A DNA stretch of 64,000 nucleotides, taken from NCBI GenBank assembly GCA_951406725.2, contig OX597820.1, positions 91,946,001 to 92,010,000 on the forward strand, written 5' to 3'. This DNA comes from Octopus vulgaris. Lineage: Eukaryota. Position 1 is the stretch's first letter. Each line of letters begins with the position of its first letter. Shown here in pieces: positions 4,791 to 62,796 of this stretch. A model generated the notes under the pieces. It was not told the DNA's origin and did no database searches. It worked only from the letters and a program-made list of their open reading frames with translations. A program made the translations under genes and the position numbers.

Positions 4791-4938
4791 TATAATCAAA
4801 ATAAGCAACAAGAATATCTTCGGTAATTTGGTACGATCGTTTCACGCTATATCATTTTACAATGTTTAATAAAATGATGTAGCGTGAAACGATCGTACCA
4901 AATTACTGAAGATATTCTTGTTGCTTATTTTGATTATA
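4791..4938. repeat. Fold-back element: 69-bp inverted arms, 10-nt loop, next to (TA)n
   Basis: 4791-4859 is the reverse complement of 4870-4938 with 2 mismatches; contains GAAAC-GATC-GTA. Confidence 0.95.
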
Positions 4939-5069
4939 ATCACCCCATGGATTTATATGGATAACACCGTACAAAATTCTGGTGCATCTGACTTAAGTAC
5001 TATATTCATTTGAATCTAAATTTTGCTGTATGTGTATATATATATATATATGTATATATAAATAAATAA

Positions 5070-5828: not shown

Positions 5829-5892
<64 letters not shown>

Positions 5893-5920
5893 AAGGGTGA
5901 AAAGGAACACACGAGTTGAT

Positions 5921-6397
5921 ATATATGAAAAAACAAGTCAAAAATAGAAAATGCTAAAATAATTTTATAGTGAACATTTCAGTACCGGTTTCGGTCATTT
6001 TGAGACCTTTTCAACTGTAACGATTAAATAATTAAATTTAGAAAAATTAGAGGAAAAGTTTTTTTAAAAGAATATTTCTATAGTAGTGTTCAGATTTAAG
6101 TGGCATTCTGCCTTTCACTGACTCACTTGTTTGCACTTGTGTGTTCGAGGTAGTTGTGTACACAACTACCTCGAACACACAAGTGCAAACAAGTGAGTCA
6201 GTGAAAGGCAGAATGCCACTTAAATCTGAACACTACTATAGAAATATTCTTTTAAAAAACTTTTCCTCTAATTTTTCTAAATTTAATTATTTAATCGTTA
6301 CAGTTGAAAAGGTCTCAAAATGACCGAAACCGGTACTGAAATGTTCACTATAAAATTATTTTAGCATTTTCTATTTTTGACTTGTTTTTTCATATAT
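5921..6397. repeat. Spacer-less palindrome, about 239-bp arms, (TA)n-flanked
   Basis: Centre TGTGT|ACACA at 6159/6160; arms identical except one indel in a T/A run. Confidence 0.97.
6301..6338 (+). ncRNA. Minimal type I hammerhead ribozyme, U3-A8 core variant (mirror copy at 5980-6017 on -)
   Basis: CAG-TTGAAAA-GGTC(tcaaaat)GACC-GAAAC-CG-GTA-CTG: stem I CAG/CTG, stem II GGTC/GACC, palindromic stem III ACCGGT, GUA cleavage triplet. Confidence 0.7.
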
Positions 6398-6512: not shown

Positions 6513-6554
<42 letters not shown>

Positions 6555-6558
<4 letters not shown>

Positions 6559-6656
6559 TTCCAAACAAGAAAACACAAAAAGAACGAAAAAACACAACAA
6601 CGCGAGGACGTGGAAAAAAATAAAATATTATTGGACGCTCAGGAAAGAAGGGAAGA
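6555..6656 (-). mobile_element. PLE-like 3' terminus abutting (TA)n
   Basis: Reverse complement of 54693-54785 and 61971-62064 (GAGCGTCCAATAATA...TTTTCTTGTTTGGA); all three end at (TA)n. Confidence 0.75.
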
Positions 6657-6695
6657 CACACACATATATATATACACACACACATATATATATAT

Positions 6696-6730
<35 letters not shown>

Positions 6731-8677
6731 CGTATATATTTATGTATGTGTATATTTATGTATATATATATATATGTGTGTATATGTATATATATGTATA
6801 TATACGTATATATTTATATGTATATATATATATGTTTATATATATGAATATATATATTTATATATAAATTTATGCCTATATGTATACATATAGGCATATA
6901 TATAAATATATTTATATTATCAATAATAACAAAGGGTAAAATTAATTAATTAATAATAACAAAGGGTAAAATAATAACAATATATTTATATATACACACA
7001 CTCACGCAAACACACGTATGATATATCTGTACACTGTTATATAATGTACCATGAGGTGAAAATCAGACATCATACTGCCGCTGTCCAGAGTTCAAATGCC
7101 CACAATCCCTTAGTATCACACCTGAGAATCTAATTCAACTATTTTATAGAAGACCCAACATCACGGCAGATGCAGTGGCTTCGAAATATTCTGTTTATTA
7201 ATACTTAAGTATTTCTTAAGCATTACTAATTATACGAGATGAGTTTCTTTATTGTATGAGATACTTTTATGAGCGCTATTAGCATACCTATTGAGAGTAT
7301 CAGTTTGTATACCGGCTAGCAGATCAGATGGAGAGCATTGTCGGAAAGGGATAAATTAAGCAGACATTTGAAAGGCAAGTACATTTGCCAAATCTGCATA
7401 TCTCTGCTTTGCAACATATTCGGAAGTGGTCCTACAGCCCCTATATGTTATTAAGTACTCTGAATTCACGATATTCTCTGCACTTACTCTCAAACTATTT
7501 TTTCACAATTACATTTTTTTCTCTAGCCTCTTATAGCTTATTGGGCTTTTCCACACTTAATATGTCTTTTTCTTTTTTGAATTCTTGAGGCAGTCACAAT
7601 GTCCTCCTTCAGCTAACCATACGTTACTTGTTTTGGCAATCCAGTTTTTTCAATGCGTAATATGAGACAAGGCCATCAAAGACGTTTTTTTTTCTTTCTA
7701 TATGATCATAGGCTCTAAACTTTACAAATTTTCTTACTGGACCAGTTTTTGGTATCTGTCCAAATAACGTCTGAGTCACATCGTCACTCTGATTATTAAA
7801 CTAAACTCTTCACATACTAAAGAGATGCAGTCAGCAATGGATATCAGCTTCGGTGTCACAGATCAGACGTCAGTCATGTGCACATAGTAGTCACGAATGT
7901 GAATGATGAATTTCTTTCATGAGACAAGTAATAAACAGATTTTTGAATGTTCGCATATTGTACGATATCTGAAGTAAATATCAGTACCGTAGTGTTATCA
8001 GCAAATGATTCTTATATATCAAAGTTAAATATGGCAAAAGCATTGACAGGCCATCGTGGGTTTTGTTTTCTTTAGCAGACATTGCTTCCAGCAGTTCACT
8101 TTTAAAGCAAACACTACATTTGCAACCGGTGGGTAGTGTTTCAAATTCCACAATTTAAAGAGTATGCTCACCCCACCTTATATATATAGCTTAACTTAGA
8201 AAGGTTTTGGCCAGTATTGGCCCAGGCCATGTCTAACTTAATAGCACCACCTGGCAAAGTCTTTCAATTCAGGATTTGGGCACCAAGGCCCATTCGAGAA
8301 GAGAGTTATTTTTGCGGAGACATATCCGGGTGTGGGTGGCTTGTGCGGGACTGCTTGGAGGAATTTGTCCAAAGAATTCTTGAATTTTGTATGGTGAGTT
8401 TCTGTTTTGACGTGAATTAATTGAGGTGAAAAAATTGTGCTGTATTGTTGTTATGAGATGCGATTTAGATTTTTGTTGTGAACGGATGGCACGGGATCCA
8501 AGTCTTGGGTGTATTTTGAAGGTGATGCCAACATCATTTGGACAGTGCTGATGGAATATTTTCCACATCATACAAATAATATACCGTTCATATATATATA
8601 TATGTAGGTCCTGGGTTGAGTCGGGGTTAACCACAGTAAATAAGGTACTCAATACATAGCAGAGTAAATTAATTTAT

Positions 8678-8794
8678 TTTATAGAAGGAGCTTCTACAGG
8701 ACTAGAACTGTTTCATTCAAAAGAAATCATCAGGAAGCCAGGCTTCCTGATGATTTCTTTTGAATGAAACAGTTCTAGTCCTGTAGAACTCCTC

Positions 8795-8800
<6 letters not shown>
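8678..8800. repeat. Palindrome with 1-nt centre (8740), (TA)n-flanked
   Basis: 8692-8739 and 8741-8788 are perfect inverted arms, extending with small indels to 8678/8800. Confidence 0.95.
8690..8738 (-). ncRNA. Type I hammerhead ribozyme (mirror copy at 8742-8788 on +)
   Basis: GCTTC-CTGATGA-tTTC(tttt)GAAt-GAAA-CAG(ttctagtc)CTG-TA-GAAGC: canonical core, 5-bp stem I, GUA site. The first stem II pair is a U-U mismatch. Confidence 0.75.
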
Positions 8801-8861
<61 letters not shown>

Positions 8862-8873
8862 TTATTTAATTTT

Positions 8874-8982
8874 TTGGGAGAGTTTATGAAAAGAATCAAA
8901 AGGCGAAGACAGGTGGTGTACAAAACAAACAGATGTATTAGTAAAACGCTCAGGAATAGAAAGTCTTACACGTTTCGTGCCT
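8874..8982 (-). mobile_element. PLE-like 3' terminus abutting (TA)n (same family as 50115-50286)
   Basis: Reverse complement of 50185-50286 (GACTTTCTATTCCTGAGCGTT...TGTACACCACCTGTCTTC). Confidence 0.8.
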
Positions 8983-9373
8983 AACACACATACGTATTAT
9001 TCTAAAGTTACGCACACGTACACATCGCTTCGCACAAGGCACGTAATTAGACACAGACACACACACACAGAGGCACACACGCTCCCATTCGGACACACAC
9101 ACAGGCTCACACAATCTTGCTTGCCCACAAATACATGCACACGCGCTCGCCCCACCCACATACATATACACTTATACGAATCTCCTTCATACAAACACTT
9201 GCGTTTGCGCGCATAAAGTTTGGCCAGGTCATTGTTATCTCTTTCTCCATTCAACCTCTTCCTTCTATTCATCTGGCATGTGTTACCCGAAATCCAGACA
9301 AGAGATTTTCCTCTCTTCAATTTTTGCCTCTCTTCCTTTTCTTTCCTCTTTCCTTTCTGTCGAATGGCGTATA

Positions 9374-18591: not shown

Positions 18592-18828
18592 ATAAAAATG
18601 ATAAGACAACAAAAGAATGAAAGAGACCTCGATATTATGTAAATAGAAGAATTTATCTGTAAATGTAATATGTGACAATTTTTCGGTAGCCATGGTAAAA
18701 CTCCGAGTTTCGAATGCCGAGGTGGAAATCCACGCCGCCATCTCTGCAGTTCTCTGGCCTGATTTCCACCTCGGCATCCGAAACTCGGAGTTTTATCATG
18801 GCTACCGAATAATTATCACATATTACAT
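18589..18828. mobile_element. (TA)n-flanked fold-back element: 68-bp arms (18663-18730 / 18761-18828), 30-nt loop
   Basis: Arms are reverse complements with 4 mismatches; CGAAACTCGGAGTT motif present. Confidence 0.9.
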
Positions 18829-18841
18829 ATATATATATATG

Positions 18842-38182: not shown

Positions 38183-38220
38183 GTATGTTCTTACATACAT
38201 AGATGTATGTAAGAACATAC
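38183..38220. repeat. Perfect 18-bp hairpin within local TATGTTCTTACA repeats
   Basis: GTATGTTCTTACATACAT-AG-ATGTATGTAAGAACATAC. Confidence 0.9.
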
Positions 38221-38839
38221 ATATGTTTATGTTCTTACAGCATCTGTGTAAGTATCATCTGTGTATGTTCTTACATCGTCTTCCTTGCCCATCTTATGAA
38301 TGACTACATAATAGTTGTCCTTATGGATAACTACTATGGATCACTCGGAGTGGGTAGAGTATCCTGACGGTCCGTTTAATATTATGTTCACGGCTTCTCT
38401 GAGAAAACATACTCAGTTACTTATGTCAATTAATAAAATACTAAACTGCGAAATATTAAACAGTCGTAAATTTGTATGACAACGCTAGGAAAACTGATTC
38501 TTTTTATCACACTTCAGAAAGAAAGAAGAAATATATTGACATCCTTGACATCGAAATGTTTTGTTATATTTAAGGTTATCTCAGTTAGCATTCACGTTAT
38601 TGTCTACATACGTTAGGTGTTGGTCAATGACTGAGATGCTGTCCTAATTAAGAATATATCAATTCGCTAATCCACTATGGTGCTAAACTATATATGCTAG
38701 TTTTGGGCGAAAGAAATTAAAGAGCCCCATGAAACTTCCTCGTTTTTTCGCACATTGACAGCATAGAAGAAAGGTATCTATTATGTAAATTTACTTTAGT
38801 TCATATTCACATTTCACTCTACTTCCTATATACTTACAT

Positions 38840-42027: not shown

Positions 42028-42090
42028 AATAATAATAATAATAATAATAATGATGATGATGATGATAATAATGATAATGATAATAATAAT

Positions 42091-42153
42091 AATAACATCG
42101 AAGAATACCTTAGGAATGAGAACCTGAGTTCTCATTCCCAACGTATTCTTCGA

Positions 42154-42160
<7 letters not shown>
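42091..42160. repeat. Hairpin, 33-bp arms, 4-nt loop, extended by (AAT)n/(ATT)n
   Basis: AATAACATCGAAGAATACCTTAGGAATGAGAAC-CTGA-GTTCTCATTCCCAACGTATTCTTCGATGTTATT. Confidence 0.9.
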
Positions 42161-42189
<29 letters not shown>

Positions 42190-42216
42190 CATTATTATTA
42201 TTCTATTTCTCTCTCA

Positions 42217-50039: not shown

Positions 50040-50114
<75 letters not shown>

Positions 50115-50283
50115 CGTTAGCCACTACACACATTTTTTTCTCTCCTTGTTCTTTCTGTGTCCCTTTCTGTAGAAGAGCGTAGTCTCGAAACGTAAAAGAC
50201 TTTCTATTCCTGAGCGTTATACTAATACATCTGTTTGTTTTGTACACCACCTGTCTTCATCTTTTGTTTTTTTCGTAAACTCT

Positions 50284-50286
<3 letters not shown>
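50115..50286 (+). mobile_element. (TA)n-flanked PLE-like terminal element with degenerate minimal HHR (50163-50198)
   Basis: CTTT-CTGTAGAA-GAG(cgtagt)CTC-GAAAC-GTA-AAAG; (TA)n on both sides; second copy at 8874. Confidence 0.65.
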
Positions 50287-50338
<52 letters not shown>

Positions 50339-54639: not shown

Positions 54640-54692
<53 letters not shown>

Positions 54693-54694
<2 letters not shown>

Positions 54695-54781
54695 TTCTTC
54701 CCTTCTTTCCTGAGTGTCCAATAATACTTTATTTGTTCCACATCCTTGCGTTGTTGTTTTTTTGTTTTCTTGTTTGGATTA

Positions 54782-54785
<4 letters not shown>
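54693..54785 (+). mobile_element. PLE-like 3' terminus inside (TA)n
   Basis: Same family as 6555-6656 and 61971-62064. Confidence 0.75.
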
Positions 54786-54813
<28 letters not shown>

Positions 54814-54817
<4 letters not shown>

Positions 54818-55349
54818 GGTATGTAGAAAAATACAACATGGACAAGAACGTATAACTCTTAGAAGACGATACAATAAACACGGACAGGACATTCGAAACC
54901 CTCAGTCTTCAGTCAAGAACCGGATCATCGTAGTAATTTCGGCTGATTAATCTTGAGATTACTAGATCACGGCCAGCCCTCCAAGAAAAACTAAGCAACG
55001 AGCATTAGAAAAACTAAGCTGGGAGCGTAGATTTCCTGGAAGAAGGATCGAATGCATACGGACACCAGGACAGCAAAAGGGACGAATATAAAAAAACAAA
55101 AAAATAATGGAATACAGAAACATGAAATACAGAAGCATTAACGGTGAAAACAACAACAAGTGTCTTACGACTGATAACAAGCAAACAAATTTTTTCTCTG
55201 GCGCAAGGAAAGGAGCCTTATCGGCGATGCCTATAGCGGCGGACGAAAAACAACGATGTTAACACGACGCTGGTCAGAAGCTGAAAGGCAGATTTCGGCC
55301 AGCAGTCACGTGACAGAGAAGAGAGAAAAAGAAAAGAAAGAGAAGCAAC

Positions 55350-55413
<64 letters not shown>

Positions 55414-55827
55414 AGGAGGGACAGACGCAACAAAGAGAGAGAAGAGAGAGAAAGAAGGAATCAGAGAGGAGAAGGGATGCGTGTCGAAGATTGACCTGTG
55501 AGTGCAGAGCGAGACAAAGAATTAGGAGGGTAGTGGAAGATTAGACCAAAGAATCAGAGGAAAGAGAAGAGAAAAAGAGGATGAGTAGAGAGAGAAGGGG
55601 ACAGATCAAGTAAAAGTGAGAGAGAGAGAGAGACAAACAAAGAGTCGTACCAGTTATTAAGAATATGTGCTCACATTAATGTTAAGAGGGTACGTGGCGC
55701 CTGGAATATATGTTAAGGTATGTAGAAAAATACAACATGGACAAGAACGTATAACTCTTAGAAGACGATACAATAAACACGGACAGGACATTCGAAACCC
55801 TCAGTCTTCAGTCAAGAACCGGATCAT
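54814..55827 (-). mobile_element. Non-coding element: 899-bp unit with identical 115-bp direct repeats (pLTR/retrozyme-like)
   Basis: 54814-54928 is identical to 55713-55827; (TA)n on both flanks; internal GA-rich tract; no credible ORF. Confidence 0.8.
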
Positions 55828-55953: not shown

Positions 55954-56019
<66 letters not shown>

Positions 56020-56060
56020 AAAGTGGGGTTGTAGGGTACCGCACGAGTGGAATAATATAC

Positions 56061-56812
56061 GAAAGAAGGTTTGAAAATGCAATTTTAAAATATTTTTATT
56101 TACTTTACCGGTTTCACTCTTTGGAAAAAGATTGTCAAAAGTAACATGTAAAAGTTTGGTTATGTTAATTATTGGTTGTTACAATATGCTACATTACATT
56201 TATACAGTCTCTGGTAACAAGAACATGTTAAGGACATAAAAAAGTTTAACAAGTCCCTTAAAATATTGGGCACAAAAGATTGTAACATAAATATACATTC
56301 TCAAGAAACTGTTAAAGATAGTTTCCAGAAGGAATTATTAAAAAGTTCAGTGGGATATTGGTATTGTATCTGTATATTCAAATACGCACAGAATATTGGT
56401 TGTCACAGAGTACTACAATACATATATATACATTCTTTGGTGACAAGAGCATGTTAAGAACATAAAAAAAGTTTAACAAGTTCATTGAAATATTGGGCAC
56501 AGATACAATACCAATATCCCACTGAACTTTTTAATAATTCCTTCTGAAAACTATCTATAACATTTTCTTGATAATGTATATTTATGTTATAATCTTTTGT
56601 GCCCAATATTTTAAGGGACTTGTTAAACTTTCTTATGTCCTTAATATGTTCTTGTTACCAGAGACTGTATAAATGTAATTTAGCATATTGTAACAACCAA
56701 TAATTAACACAACCAAACTTTTACATGTTACTTTTGACAATCTTTTTCCAAAGAGTGAAACCGGTAAAAGTAAATAAACATCTTTTAAAATTGCATTTTC
56801 AAACCTTCTTTC
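56061..56812. repeat. Fold-back element: about 313-bp arms (56061-56373 / 56499-56812), 125-bp spacer
   Basis: Arms are reverse complements with scattered mismatches. HHR-like TTACTT-TTGACAA-TCTTT(ttcc)AAAGA-gt-GAAAC-CG-GTA-AAGTAA at 56100-56144 (-) and 56728-56773 (+). Confidence 0.92.
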
Positions 56813-56816
56813 TATA

Positions 56817-56902
<86 letters not shown>

Positions 56903-58441: not shown

Positions 58442-58641
58442 ATTGTTGTATTTCGGAATGGTCATTTTGCCAGTTTAGCCAATAAAAACACATGCACTAT
58501 ATATTTGGTGTTACTTTGCTTCAGTGTTATTTATTTTTTACATTAATCTTAAGCTTATTTCGGCCAGAGTTCTTTCGTCACACTCCTGCGTGTGTTTTTG
58601 TTGGCTAAACTAGCAAAATGACCATTCCGAAATACAACAAT
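58442..58641. repeat. Fold-back element: 55-bp arms, 90-bp spacer
   Basis: 58442-58496 and 58587-58641 are reverse complements with 3 mismatches. Confidence 0.92.
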
Positions 58642-58698
58642 GTCTGTTTCAACACAATGACTTCACATATAAAATCTTGCACAACAAATATATAAACG

Positions 58699-58752
<54 letters not shown>

Positions 58753-59324: not shown

Positions 59325-59957
59325 TTTTTGCATGAACCGGTCAGTCAAGCGGCGTCCCGTTTGCCTGATGTATAGAAAAGGGCAGAGAGAGAGCACGAGA
59401 TGCAGGAGATGACATTGGTAGAAGTGCAGGTGAAGGAGTCGGTGATATGATAAGGTCGATGATGGGTGCCGGTGAAGAGGGTTGTGTTGGAGAGGTAAGG
59501 GCAAGTGCGGCAGCGTGGGCGGGAGCAGGGGAACAAGCCGGGTTGGGAGATTGGGTTAGCGAAGAAGCTGTGGACCAAGAGGGCTCGCAGGTTGTGGGCT
59601 CATTTGAAGGAGGGGAGGGGTCGATTAGGGAAGATGTGCGAAGTGTAGGGGCCAGATTGGAGTCGCCGGAAAGATCGGAGAATGGTGCGATGGAGAGGTA
59701 GGGTTGTGGGAGTGGTAGGGGAGAGGAAACGGGAGACGGGGGAAGGCGTAGCGGGTGAAGATGGAGAGCAGATGCACGGTCCACGGAACGTGCTCTGGCA
59801 ATAGCGATGTGGATAGTGGTGAGGGGATATCCACGTAGGATAAAGTGGCGAGTCATGAGTTGAGACTGAGTCACAAAGTCATGGTGGTCACTGCAGAGCC
59901 TGCGTAGATGGAAGAATTGAGAATAGGGGATGTAAAGCTTGGTGTGATGAGGATTGT
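59325..59957 (-). pseudogene. Penelope-like element (Neptune-type) ORF remnant: RT thumb, Cys linker, GIY-YIG endonuclease
   Basis: PHHTKLYIPYSQFFHLRRLCSD...FILRGYP; PCSRPRCRTCPY...FTCTSTNVISCISC; FLYIRQTGRRLTDRF (decayed YIGxT.R), spread over three frames. Confidence 0.92.
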
Positions 59958-60177
59958 TCTGCATTTAAATTGATGTAATGATTTCAGTGTTCAATTAAGC
60001 CGAGTTGCTTGAAACGATCGTACTGCATTACCTCTCGATATATTGGTTACTTATTTTGATTTTAATCATCTTGTTTTGACATTTTATGGATAATACCTTA
60101 TTAAATTCTGGTGCCTCAACTTAAGAACCTAATTCATCTGAATTTCTTTCTCTCTCTCCCACTCACTCACTCTCTCA

Positions 60178-61854: not shown

Positions 61855-62059
61855 CAAAATGTGACCTCGTGTGTACCGTTGGCGATTCTTTTCCTCTGTC
61901 TTCCCTTCTCTGGATCTTTCCTTCTCCTATGTTTCCGACGAAGAGCTCCGCTCGAAACGTTAAGCCCTCCTTCTTTCCATCTTTCCAGAGCGTCCAATAA
62001 TACTATATTTGTTCCACGTCATCACGTTGTGGTGTTTTTTTGTGTTTTCTTGTTTGGAT

Positions 62060-62064
<5 letters not shown>
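61855..62064 (+). mobile_element. (TA)n-flanked PLE-like terminal element with minimal HHR-like motif (61931-61965)
   Basis: GTTT-CCGACGA-A-GAGC(tcc)GCTC-GAAAC-GTT-AAGC; palindromic AACGTT stem III; U4 is changed to C. Confidence 0.65.
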
Positions 62065-62097
<33 letters not shown>

Positions 62098-62247
62098 GTG
62101 AAATAGAAAGATGAATAATCTTGTAGTAGATTAATCAAAAGTTTAACCGATACCTTAGTAGCAAAAATCACAGCAGTAAAACAGCACGGTTGGAGGTACA
62201 ACCATATGGTGTTGCAACCGTGCGTTGGTGCGGATAATTGAAATTAG

Positions 62248-62794
62248 AACATTATTGGTGAATTGAAGAAATGGAGCTGAACGCAGATTGAACAGAAATC
62301 GTTTTATTTCATTCTACACGTGTTTCGAAAGGCACAAATTACCAAAATCCGATGGAATAATGGGACCATATTGTGTCTTTCTCTTCAGGAAGAAAATAGG
62401 AAATCCGTTGGAAAAACAAAAACAGAACAGAGGCGGAGCAAAAACAAATCGAACTATGCTCCTAAGAGCCCATGGCGAAACTGTTTATCAGTGTATGTTG
62501 AGAACCGATGCCTGACCCGTTGAATTCTTCAGCCACCGGTTCTCAACATACACTGATAAACAGTTTCGCCATGGGCTCTTAGGAGCATAGTTCGATTTGT
62601 TTTTGCTCCGCCTCTGTTCTGTTTTTGTTTTTCCAACGGATTTCCTATTTTCTTCCTGAAGAGAAAGACACAATATGGTCCCATTATTCCATCGGATTTT
62701 GGTAATTTGTGCCTTTCGAAACACGTGTAGAATGAAATAAAACGATTTCTGTTCAATCTGCGTTCAGCTCCATTTCTTCAATTCACCAATAATG

Positions 62795-62796
<2 letters not shown>
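62248..62796. repeat. Fold-back element: about 268-bp arms, 13-nt loop, ending in (TA)n
   Basis: 62248-62515 and 62529-62796 are identical except near the loop; this explains the mirrored ORFs in the track. Confidence 0.97.
62649..62737 (+). ncRNA. Type I hammerhead ribozyme with canonical core (mirror copy at 62307-62395 on -)
   Basis: TTTC-TTC-CTGAAGA-GAAAGaCACAA(...)TTGTGcCTTTC-GAAAC-ACGT-GTA-GAA-t-GAAA: all core nucleotides, long stem II, palindromic ACACGTGT stem III, GUA site. Confidence 0.85.

Follow-up and report, generated by a model that had tools for sequence, protein, structure and literature searches.

The palindrome at 8678–8800 of the Octopus vulgaris window (the whole 64,000-nucleotide stretch of DNA analyzed, in whose coordinates all positions are given) carries a type I hammerhead motif in one arm and an inverted copy of it in the other, and the longer segment 8604–8800 is likely the 5′-truncated, folded-back 3′ end of a Penelope-like retroelement (PLE). 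Taking the evidence as a whole, we consider it probable that a cDNA of this 3′ end, likely ending 1–4 nt past stem I of the hammerhead, snapped back and templated the second arm. A sequence-only reading of the same DNA had reported the palindrome and suggested a structural block to reverse transcriptase (RT) as its cause; the observation was confirmed, and the interpretation was partly supported.

Anatomy of the insertion and its hammerhead motif

Overall, the window is eukaryotic in its sequence, AT-rich and full of microsatellites. Self-alignment placed the center of the palindrome at an unpaired A (A8740) flanked by perfect 48-bp arms (8692–8739 and 8741–8788), with the alignment reaching 8678–8800 at 96% and two 1-nt gaps in the plus arm. 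Outward from A8740, each arm consists of one G followed by the type I hammerhead motif, such that stem I starts at 8738 on the minus strand and at 8742 on the plus strand, each two positions off center. The alignment bore out the extent and center given in the sequence-only reading, which had placed 8740 at 2 nt 5′ of stem I, as well as its statements that the minus copy has an intact stem I (GCUUC/GAAGC) and that in the plus copy the G of GAAGC is missing; a second 1-nt gap in the plus arm, five bases outward of the stem I gap, was absent from it. Each arm had also been described as essentially one hammerhead, and a hammerhead motif is indeed present in each, but the one-sided 74-nt tail at 8604–8677 and the terminal (AT)n had been missed. 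The parts of the insertion are listed below, with contig evidence drawn from four public runs of independent studies (X1, X3, X7 and X8).

8590–8603, no strand: (AT)7 microsatellite at the tail end; from sequence, with contig loose ends at 8590 in X1, X7 and X8
8604–8677, minus: PLE-type tail, a 74-nt 3′ extension of the long arm that the short arm lacks, running up to the (AT)7; from self-alignment and contig depth
8678–8739, minus: long arm, comprising the hammerhead plus 12–14 nt; from self-alignment
8739–8741, no strand: inversion tip with center A8740, a 3-nt loop in hairpin form; from alignment and folding
8741–8800, plus: short inverted arm with the second hammerhead copy (core 8747–8753); both 1-nt gaps lie beyond 8788, and one shortens stem I; from alignment
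8800–8857, no strand: ~(AT)29 microsatellite at the short-arm end; from sequence

The (AT)7 at 8590–8603 is the likely insertion target, and it parts the palindrome insertion from an older repeat at 8200–8590. Summed contig depth was high over 8600–8679, which includes the tail, in all four runs. The older repeat is a separate high-copy sequence that has diverged from most of the contigs aligned to it; judging from a loose end at 8216, its minus strand may carry the remains of a hammerhead-like end, facing (AT)n at 8180.

With neither an RT nor a GIY-YIG gene assignable to the hammerhead family, the PLE identity of the insertion rests on its anatomy. PLE insertions are described as having an adjacent inverted 5′-truncated copy, a tail that is often one-ended, and (TA)n targets (PMC8557442); palindromes at their head-to-head junctions have been interpreted as self-priming (PMC3846280); and minimal hammerheads occur on opposite strands 100–700 bp apart (PMC4209133). 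The octopus insertion has the inverted 5′-truncated copy, the tail at one end and the (AT)7 and ~(AT)29 flanks, with a tail of 74 nt as against the 30–40 nt usual for PLEs. The palindrome copy itself contains no ORF, and searches for family loci that might hold the parent RT/GIY-YIG gene gave four matches in viral contigs, zero and three in metagenomes and none in prokaryote genomes, none of them a family locus. All seven matches in the viral contigs and metagenomes were dropped as chance, since only a short pattern matched.

Elsewhere in the window, a frame at 59760–59964 (minus) has what we take to be a resemblance to a PLE RT-endonuclease linker, and it stands head to head with a hammerhead-like end at 59985–60025 (plus). 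A search with 59341–59964 (minus) as a possible PLE linker returned no Pfam family, no homologue among 18 candidates and no Atlas match above 0.76, and the frame was given no weight in assigning the insertion to PLEs.

The hammerhead in the long arm, on the minus strand, has the following elements.

8690–8738, minus: type I minimal hammerhead motif; from descriptor match, folding and contig variation
8738–8734 with 8694–8690, minus: stem I, 5 bp
8733–8727, minus: core CUGAUGA
8726–8715, minus: stem II region, 12 nt, with U.U at its base, 3 bp and a UUUU loop
8714–8712, minus: GAA
8711–8708 with 8699–8696, minus: stem III, 4 bp, with a CUAG palindrome in loop III
8695/8694, minus: predicted cut, at the triplet GUA
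8680–8698, minus: predicted 8-bp hairpin over the cut site and the 3′ strand of stem I (−6.1 kcal/mol, in the minimum-energy fold of 8605–8740 minus); the short arm ends at its base

Both arms contain all core elements (C3 U4 G5 A6 N7 G8 A9, G12 A13 A14, A15.1-U16.1 and the NUH triplet, here GUA), and only the minus arm has a stem I within the 4–5 bp type (5 bp), that of the plus arm being 3 bp followed by a bulge. At the base of stem II, U.U takes the place of the conserved G10.1-C11.1, a pair that is highly conserved in PLE hammerheads yet lies outside the descriptor used in PMC4209133. Our own type I descriptor (CUGANGA, GAAA, NUH and a stem I of at least 5 bp), which was composed after the motif had been seen, matched once in the window, at 8733 on the minus strand, and, when the window was stripped of microsatellites and shuffled, in 2 of 100 shuffles. 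No Rfam hammerhead family was found at gathering score over the window, nor at E values up to 10 over 8400–9100. Rfam microRNA matches over 8400–9100 were set aside; they lay far under gathering score, and any long hairpin gives such generic matches.

The active-like monomer fold was predicted at −5.7 kcal/mol and 5% of the ensemble, the best fold having a z score of 0.29, and the predicted hairpin at 8680–8698 competes with it. A dimer joined by a self-duplex of the loop III CUAG was predicted at −14.8 kcal/mol, and palindromic loop III sequences and dimerization through helix III have been described for PLE hammerheads (PMC4209133, PMC6765202). As RNA of either strand, 8678–8800 forms a single hairpin (−94.3 kcal/mol, z ~ −20) whose stability was equaled by none of 200 shuffles, and in the predicted fold of this double-arm RNA all seven core bases are paired with a probability of at least 0.999, so the hammerhead is predicted to be silent there. 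Among the 40 of 80 contig variants listed, two fell within the element, and the sole core variant was at N7 (8729), where it made up 26, 53, 78 and 71% of depth in the four runs; core variation confined to N7, among the variants listed, fits a conserved core and speaks to self-cleavage only indirectly. The reading of the motif as a PLE-type hammerhead, predicted to be self-cleaving, is supported.

Family abundance and junction sites in public contigs

Part of 8200–8797 was contained in 20 of the 24 runs listed, under five organism labels, with none containing half of its words and none of these 20 listed as an RNA run. In the three largest runs, summed contig depth over the element was 1e5–1e6, as against 4–100 for single long pieces, which indicates a high-copy family, although contig depth is no copy number; this high-copy family was seen under three organism labels.

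Contigs of the four runs contained two symmetric tips that are shorter than that of the octopus 8740 copy. The tip shorter by 5 letters, a loop-less palindrome, had depths of 81, 3127, 2963 and 68 in X1, X3, X7 and X8 (3, 4, 4 and 1 contigs, respectively). The tip shorter by 6 letters, a palindrome with a 3-nt loop, had depths of 696, 430 and 380 in X1, X3 and X7 (one contig each), and X8 had one piece with this tip, spanning 8668–8767 with 6 gaps. With the octopus copy included, three different symmetric tips fall within 6 nt at the 5′ edge of stem I, and because the shorter ones occur in four of four and three of four runs at the same edge, the site recurs.

The junctions considered were those listed, 24 of 862 loose ends and 15 of 42 main joints. 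Among the joints with letters between them (12 of 14 listed), eight involve the element: four at 8742, three at 8759–8761 and one at 8715. Upstream of stem I the reference has no sequence of the family; junctions there are visible only out to ~10 nt, and the pile-up at 8742 is partly forced. Two of the three joints at 8759–8761 are mirror-symmetric fold-backs in loop II (8720/8760 and 8719/8761), at single-copy depth. The stem I edge is therefore a recurring junction site, though not the sole one. As to how inversion points are distributed relative to the hammerhead across the family, a check called for by the sequence-only reading, recurrence at the stem I edge held up in the contigs, but junctions also lie in loop II and, in other fold-backs of the window, 122–230 nt away. 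In a search of the main texts of openly available papers, we found no publication linking inversion points to the hammerhead; the supplements of PMC4209133 and PMC8557442 may list the motif of this family.

The base before stem I is A in all five outside sequences listed (the four joints to 8742 and one loose end at 8738), which would give most family copies a self-complementary AGCT at the edge. The 8740 copy has G rather than A at this position, so this micro-palindrome does not account for its own tip. At one loose end in X8 (two contigs, agreement 0.84), the sense strand has a pyrimidine tract and UAG immediately before stem I.

Origin of the fold-back and competing explanations

In the sequence of events that we propose, the RT-endonuclease of a PLE, acting in trans, would nick (AT)n, and uncleaved RNA would be copied from the tail through the entire hammerhead; in vitro, uncleaved RNA is the dominant substrate of an anole PLE (PMC11167929). 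The cDNA would end just past stem I, probably at a template boundary and, in most family copies, at AGCT. Its 3′ end would then fold back with a 3–4 nt loop, extension along the cDNA would proceed as far as the base of the small hairpin that follows the cut site, and after resolution only one side would retain the tail. By our reconstruction, all three tips could be built from a cDNA ending 1–4 nt past stem I with a 3–4 nt loop, and the hammerhead would be a passenger in the fold-back rather than a roadblock. Two variants were rejected: snap-back through stem I complementarity in the cDNA, which would put the core in the loop and not in both arms, and truncation set by self-cleavage, since the junction is not at 8695/8694.

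A more specific form of this proposal, which we hold tentatively and rate well short of probable, is that the family is a non-autonomous hammerhead mini-PLE with a template boundary at the first base pair of the ribozyme (possibly a splice acceptor) and habitual snap-back, such that its ribozyme/antisense hairpins are born silenced. The intron of D. virilis Penelope ends at the 5′ end of helix I (PMC4209133), and this, together with the pyrimidine tract and UAG in X8, makes a template boundary at stem I plausible, if thinly supported.

The main rival, a possibility that we regard as somewhat doubtful, is a palindromic mini-element that spreads as a unit, its hairpin being transcribed and re-copied by PLE proteins such that one ancestral fold-back seeds many copies; re-copying would pass through the tip, or snap back again just past it, and so yield small tip differences. 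The PLE origin is unchanged under this explanation, and only the cause of the hotspot differs. In its favor, the depth of two of the tips exceeds that of single long pieces by a factor of tens to hundreds, a palindromic master that propagated would likewise be expected to leave many copies with the same tip, and a cDNA extending past an existing tip would have a perfectly complementary 3′ end. Recurrent, independent events are suggested, however, by the three different tips, the two symmetric fold-backs in loop II and the four asymmetric joints at 8742, and a perfect 60-bp hairpin (−94 kcal/mol) is a poor template.

The hammerhead lies near the 3′ end of a PLE, and the center of any very short fold-back would hence fall near it, raising the alternative that chance truncation placed the tip where it is. 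The window allows a comparison, as it contains nine self-inverted stretches, the hammerhead palindrome included. Read by eye, six of the others have a one-sided tail into (TA)n; three of these have clear hammerhead cores, two being of the U3-A8 type described in PMC4209133. These stretches, and a set of related repeat ends, are listed below.

5888–6391: palindrome without a loop, flanked by (TA)n; arms ~233 bp, tail of ~35 nt on one side
62096–62796: palindrome flanked by (TA)n; perfect arms of 260 bp, tail of ~150 nt on one side
56018–56817: inverted repeat with arms of ~320 bp, a complex spacer and a one-sided tail of ~40 nt
4795–5030, 18600–18840 and 58442–58700: shorter fold-backs, each tailed on one side and bearing a degenerate hammerhead-like motif
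42049–42202 (embedded in (TAA)n) and 38192–38254: small palindromes in which no hammerhead anchor was recognized
8860–8983 (minus), 50110–50290, 61860–62063, 54690–54790 and 6553–6660 (minus): related short repeat ends into (TA)n

The stretch at 5888–6391 has, at 6304 and mirrored at 6015, a hammerhead-like motif whose core is the U3-A8 variant; that at 62096–62796 has a full-core motif at 62656, in which stem II is long and interrupted and an ACGU palindrome occurs; and that at 56018–56817 has a U3-A8 hammerhead-like motif at 56734. The fold-backs at 4795–4934 and 18665–18826 have their junctions at the motif or within it, with inner arm ends 16 and 19 nt from GAAA, and 4857–5015 is related to 59981–60143. 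Of the five short repeat ends, two retain a minimal hammerhead-like motif that has a CG palindrome, a third is truncated within the motif, and the other two start downstream of it. Also present is a 115-bp direct repeat with identical copies ~900 bp apart (54814–54928 and 55713–55827), which could be a pseudo-LTR pair.

In seven of the nine fold-backs, the inner arm end lies 16, 19, 25, 42, 166, 189 or 258 nt from the GAAA anchor; 38192–38254 and 42049–42202, where no GAAA anchor was recognized, were excluded from this count. The 8740 palindrome accounts for the 25 nt, and the three degenerate motifs, which were assigned post hoc, for 16, 19 and 42 nt. This spread is in keeping with chance truncation, as is the bias of junction detection in the contigs toward the stem I edge. 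We nonetheless think chance truncation unlikely, given two tips at one site with multi-copy depth under three organism labels.

In the sequence-only reading, the folded hammerhead itself was suggested to stall RT at its edge and to trigger the fold-back. The recurrence of junctions at the stem I edge in contigs speaks for such a stall, and the fold-backs at 4795–4934 and 18665–18826 likewise turn at or inside degenerate hammerhead-like motifs. RT reads its template 3′ to 5′ and halts on the 3′ side of structures. A roadblock junction would therefore be expected near 8690 (and one set by cleavage at 8695/8694), not at the 5′ edge, which RT, meeting first the tail and then the 3′ strand of stem I, would reach only after the whole motif had been copied. 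For a sense template, then, the junction is on the wrong side of the structure. The monomer fold is also weak, the fold-backs bearing the three clear hammerheads elsewhere in the window, which serve as controls, have their junctions 122, 141 and 230 nt away from the motif, and fold-backs of the family occur in loop II as well. In addition, simple truncated copies of neighboring families have their ends upstream of the motif in some cases and within it or downstream of it in others. The wrong side, the weak fold and the distant junctions elsewhere leave an RT stall a distinctly improbable cause.

An assembly or library fold-back artefact is highly improbable: the exact tip of the 8740 copy was not among the contig rows listed, and both 1-nt gaps, being next to a long (AT)n run, could reflect errors in the consensus, but contigs from four independent studies cross the same center with near-identical tips, and the palindrome ends after ~60 bp with a one-sided tail, as in six other elements of the window.

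Significance and relation to known elements

Taken by itself the locus has little weight, as hammerhead-bearing inverted PLE stumps are an already known kind of element, with several in this window alone; cephalopod hammerhead counts are given in PMC6962438. The useful part is the recurring junction at stem I, which is worth a genome-wide count. For PLE head-to-head inversion, PMC3846280 proposes self-priming on an antisense template, and PMC8557442 lists the mechanism as an open question; a high-copy family with a narrow junction and several tips would let genome data separate snap-back, antisense self-priming and propagation of a master. If the mini-PLE reading were true, a fixed hotspot with tip variants would provide a base-level readout of how PLE inversions form. 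If transcribed, the hairpins might also be ready double-stranded RNA for ADAR editing or small-RNA pathways, as has been described for a palindromic frog repeat (PMC5625713).

Among known systems, the head-to-head inverted pLTR insertions of endonuclease-bearing PLEs (PMC3846280, PMC8557442) share with the octopus insertion a palindromic junction to an inverted truncated copy, a tail at one end, a (TA)n target and a target duplication that is not visible. The octopus palindrome differs from them in having no ORF, arms of only ~60 bp and a tail of 74 rather than 30–40 nt, and the recurrence of the family's junction at the stem I edge is a trait without description in the accessible text of those two sources. 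With the minimal type I hammerheads of metazoan PLEs (PMC4209133) the octopus motif has in common a full core, a 5-bp stem I, a palindromic loop III and copies on opposite strands, whereas its stem II is short with a U.U base and its 4-bp stem III is longer than usual. U.U at the base of helix II is also found in axolotl HHR_Amex2, whose cleavage is weak in the monomer (22% in 1 h) and improves in the dimer (PMC7229834). Non-LTR retrozymes, HHR_Amex2 among them (PMC7229834; bioRxiv 10.64898/2026.07.22.740005) are likewise non-coding, PLE-related and equipped with a type I hammerhead. A retrozyme as defined in the latter source was rejected, because the only match to the element within the window is its self-inverted one, with no tandem copy: retrozymes are direct tandem repeats of 150–450 bp, each with a type I hammerhead, whereas octopus 8678–8800 is a single inverted pair.
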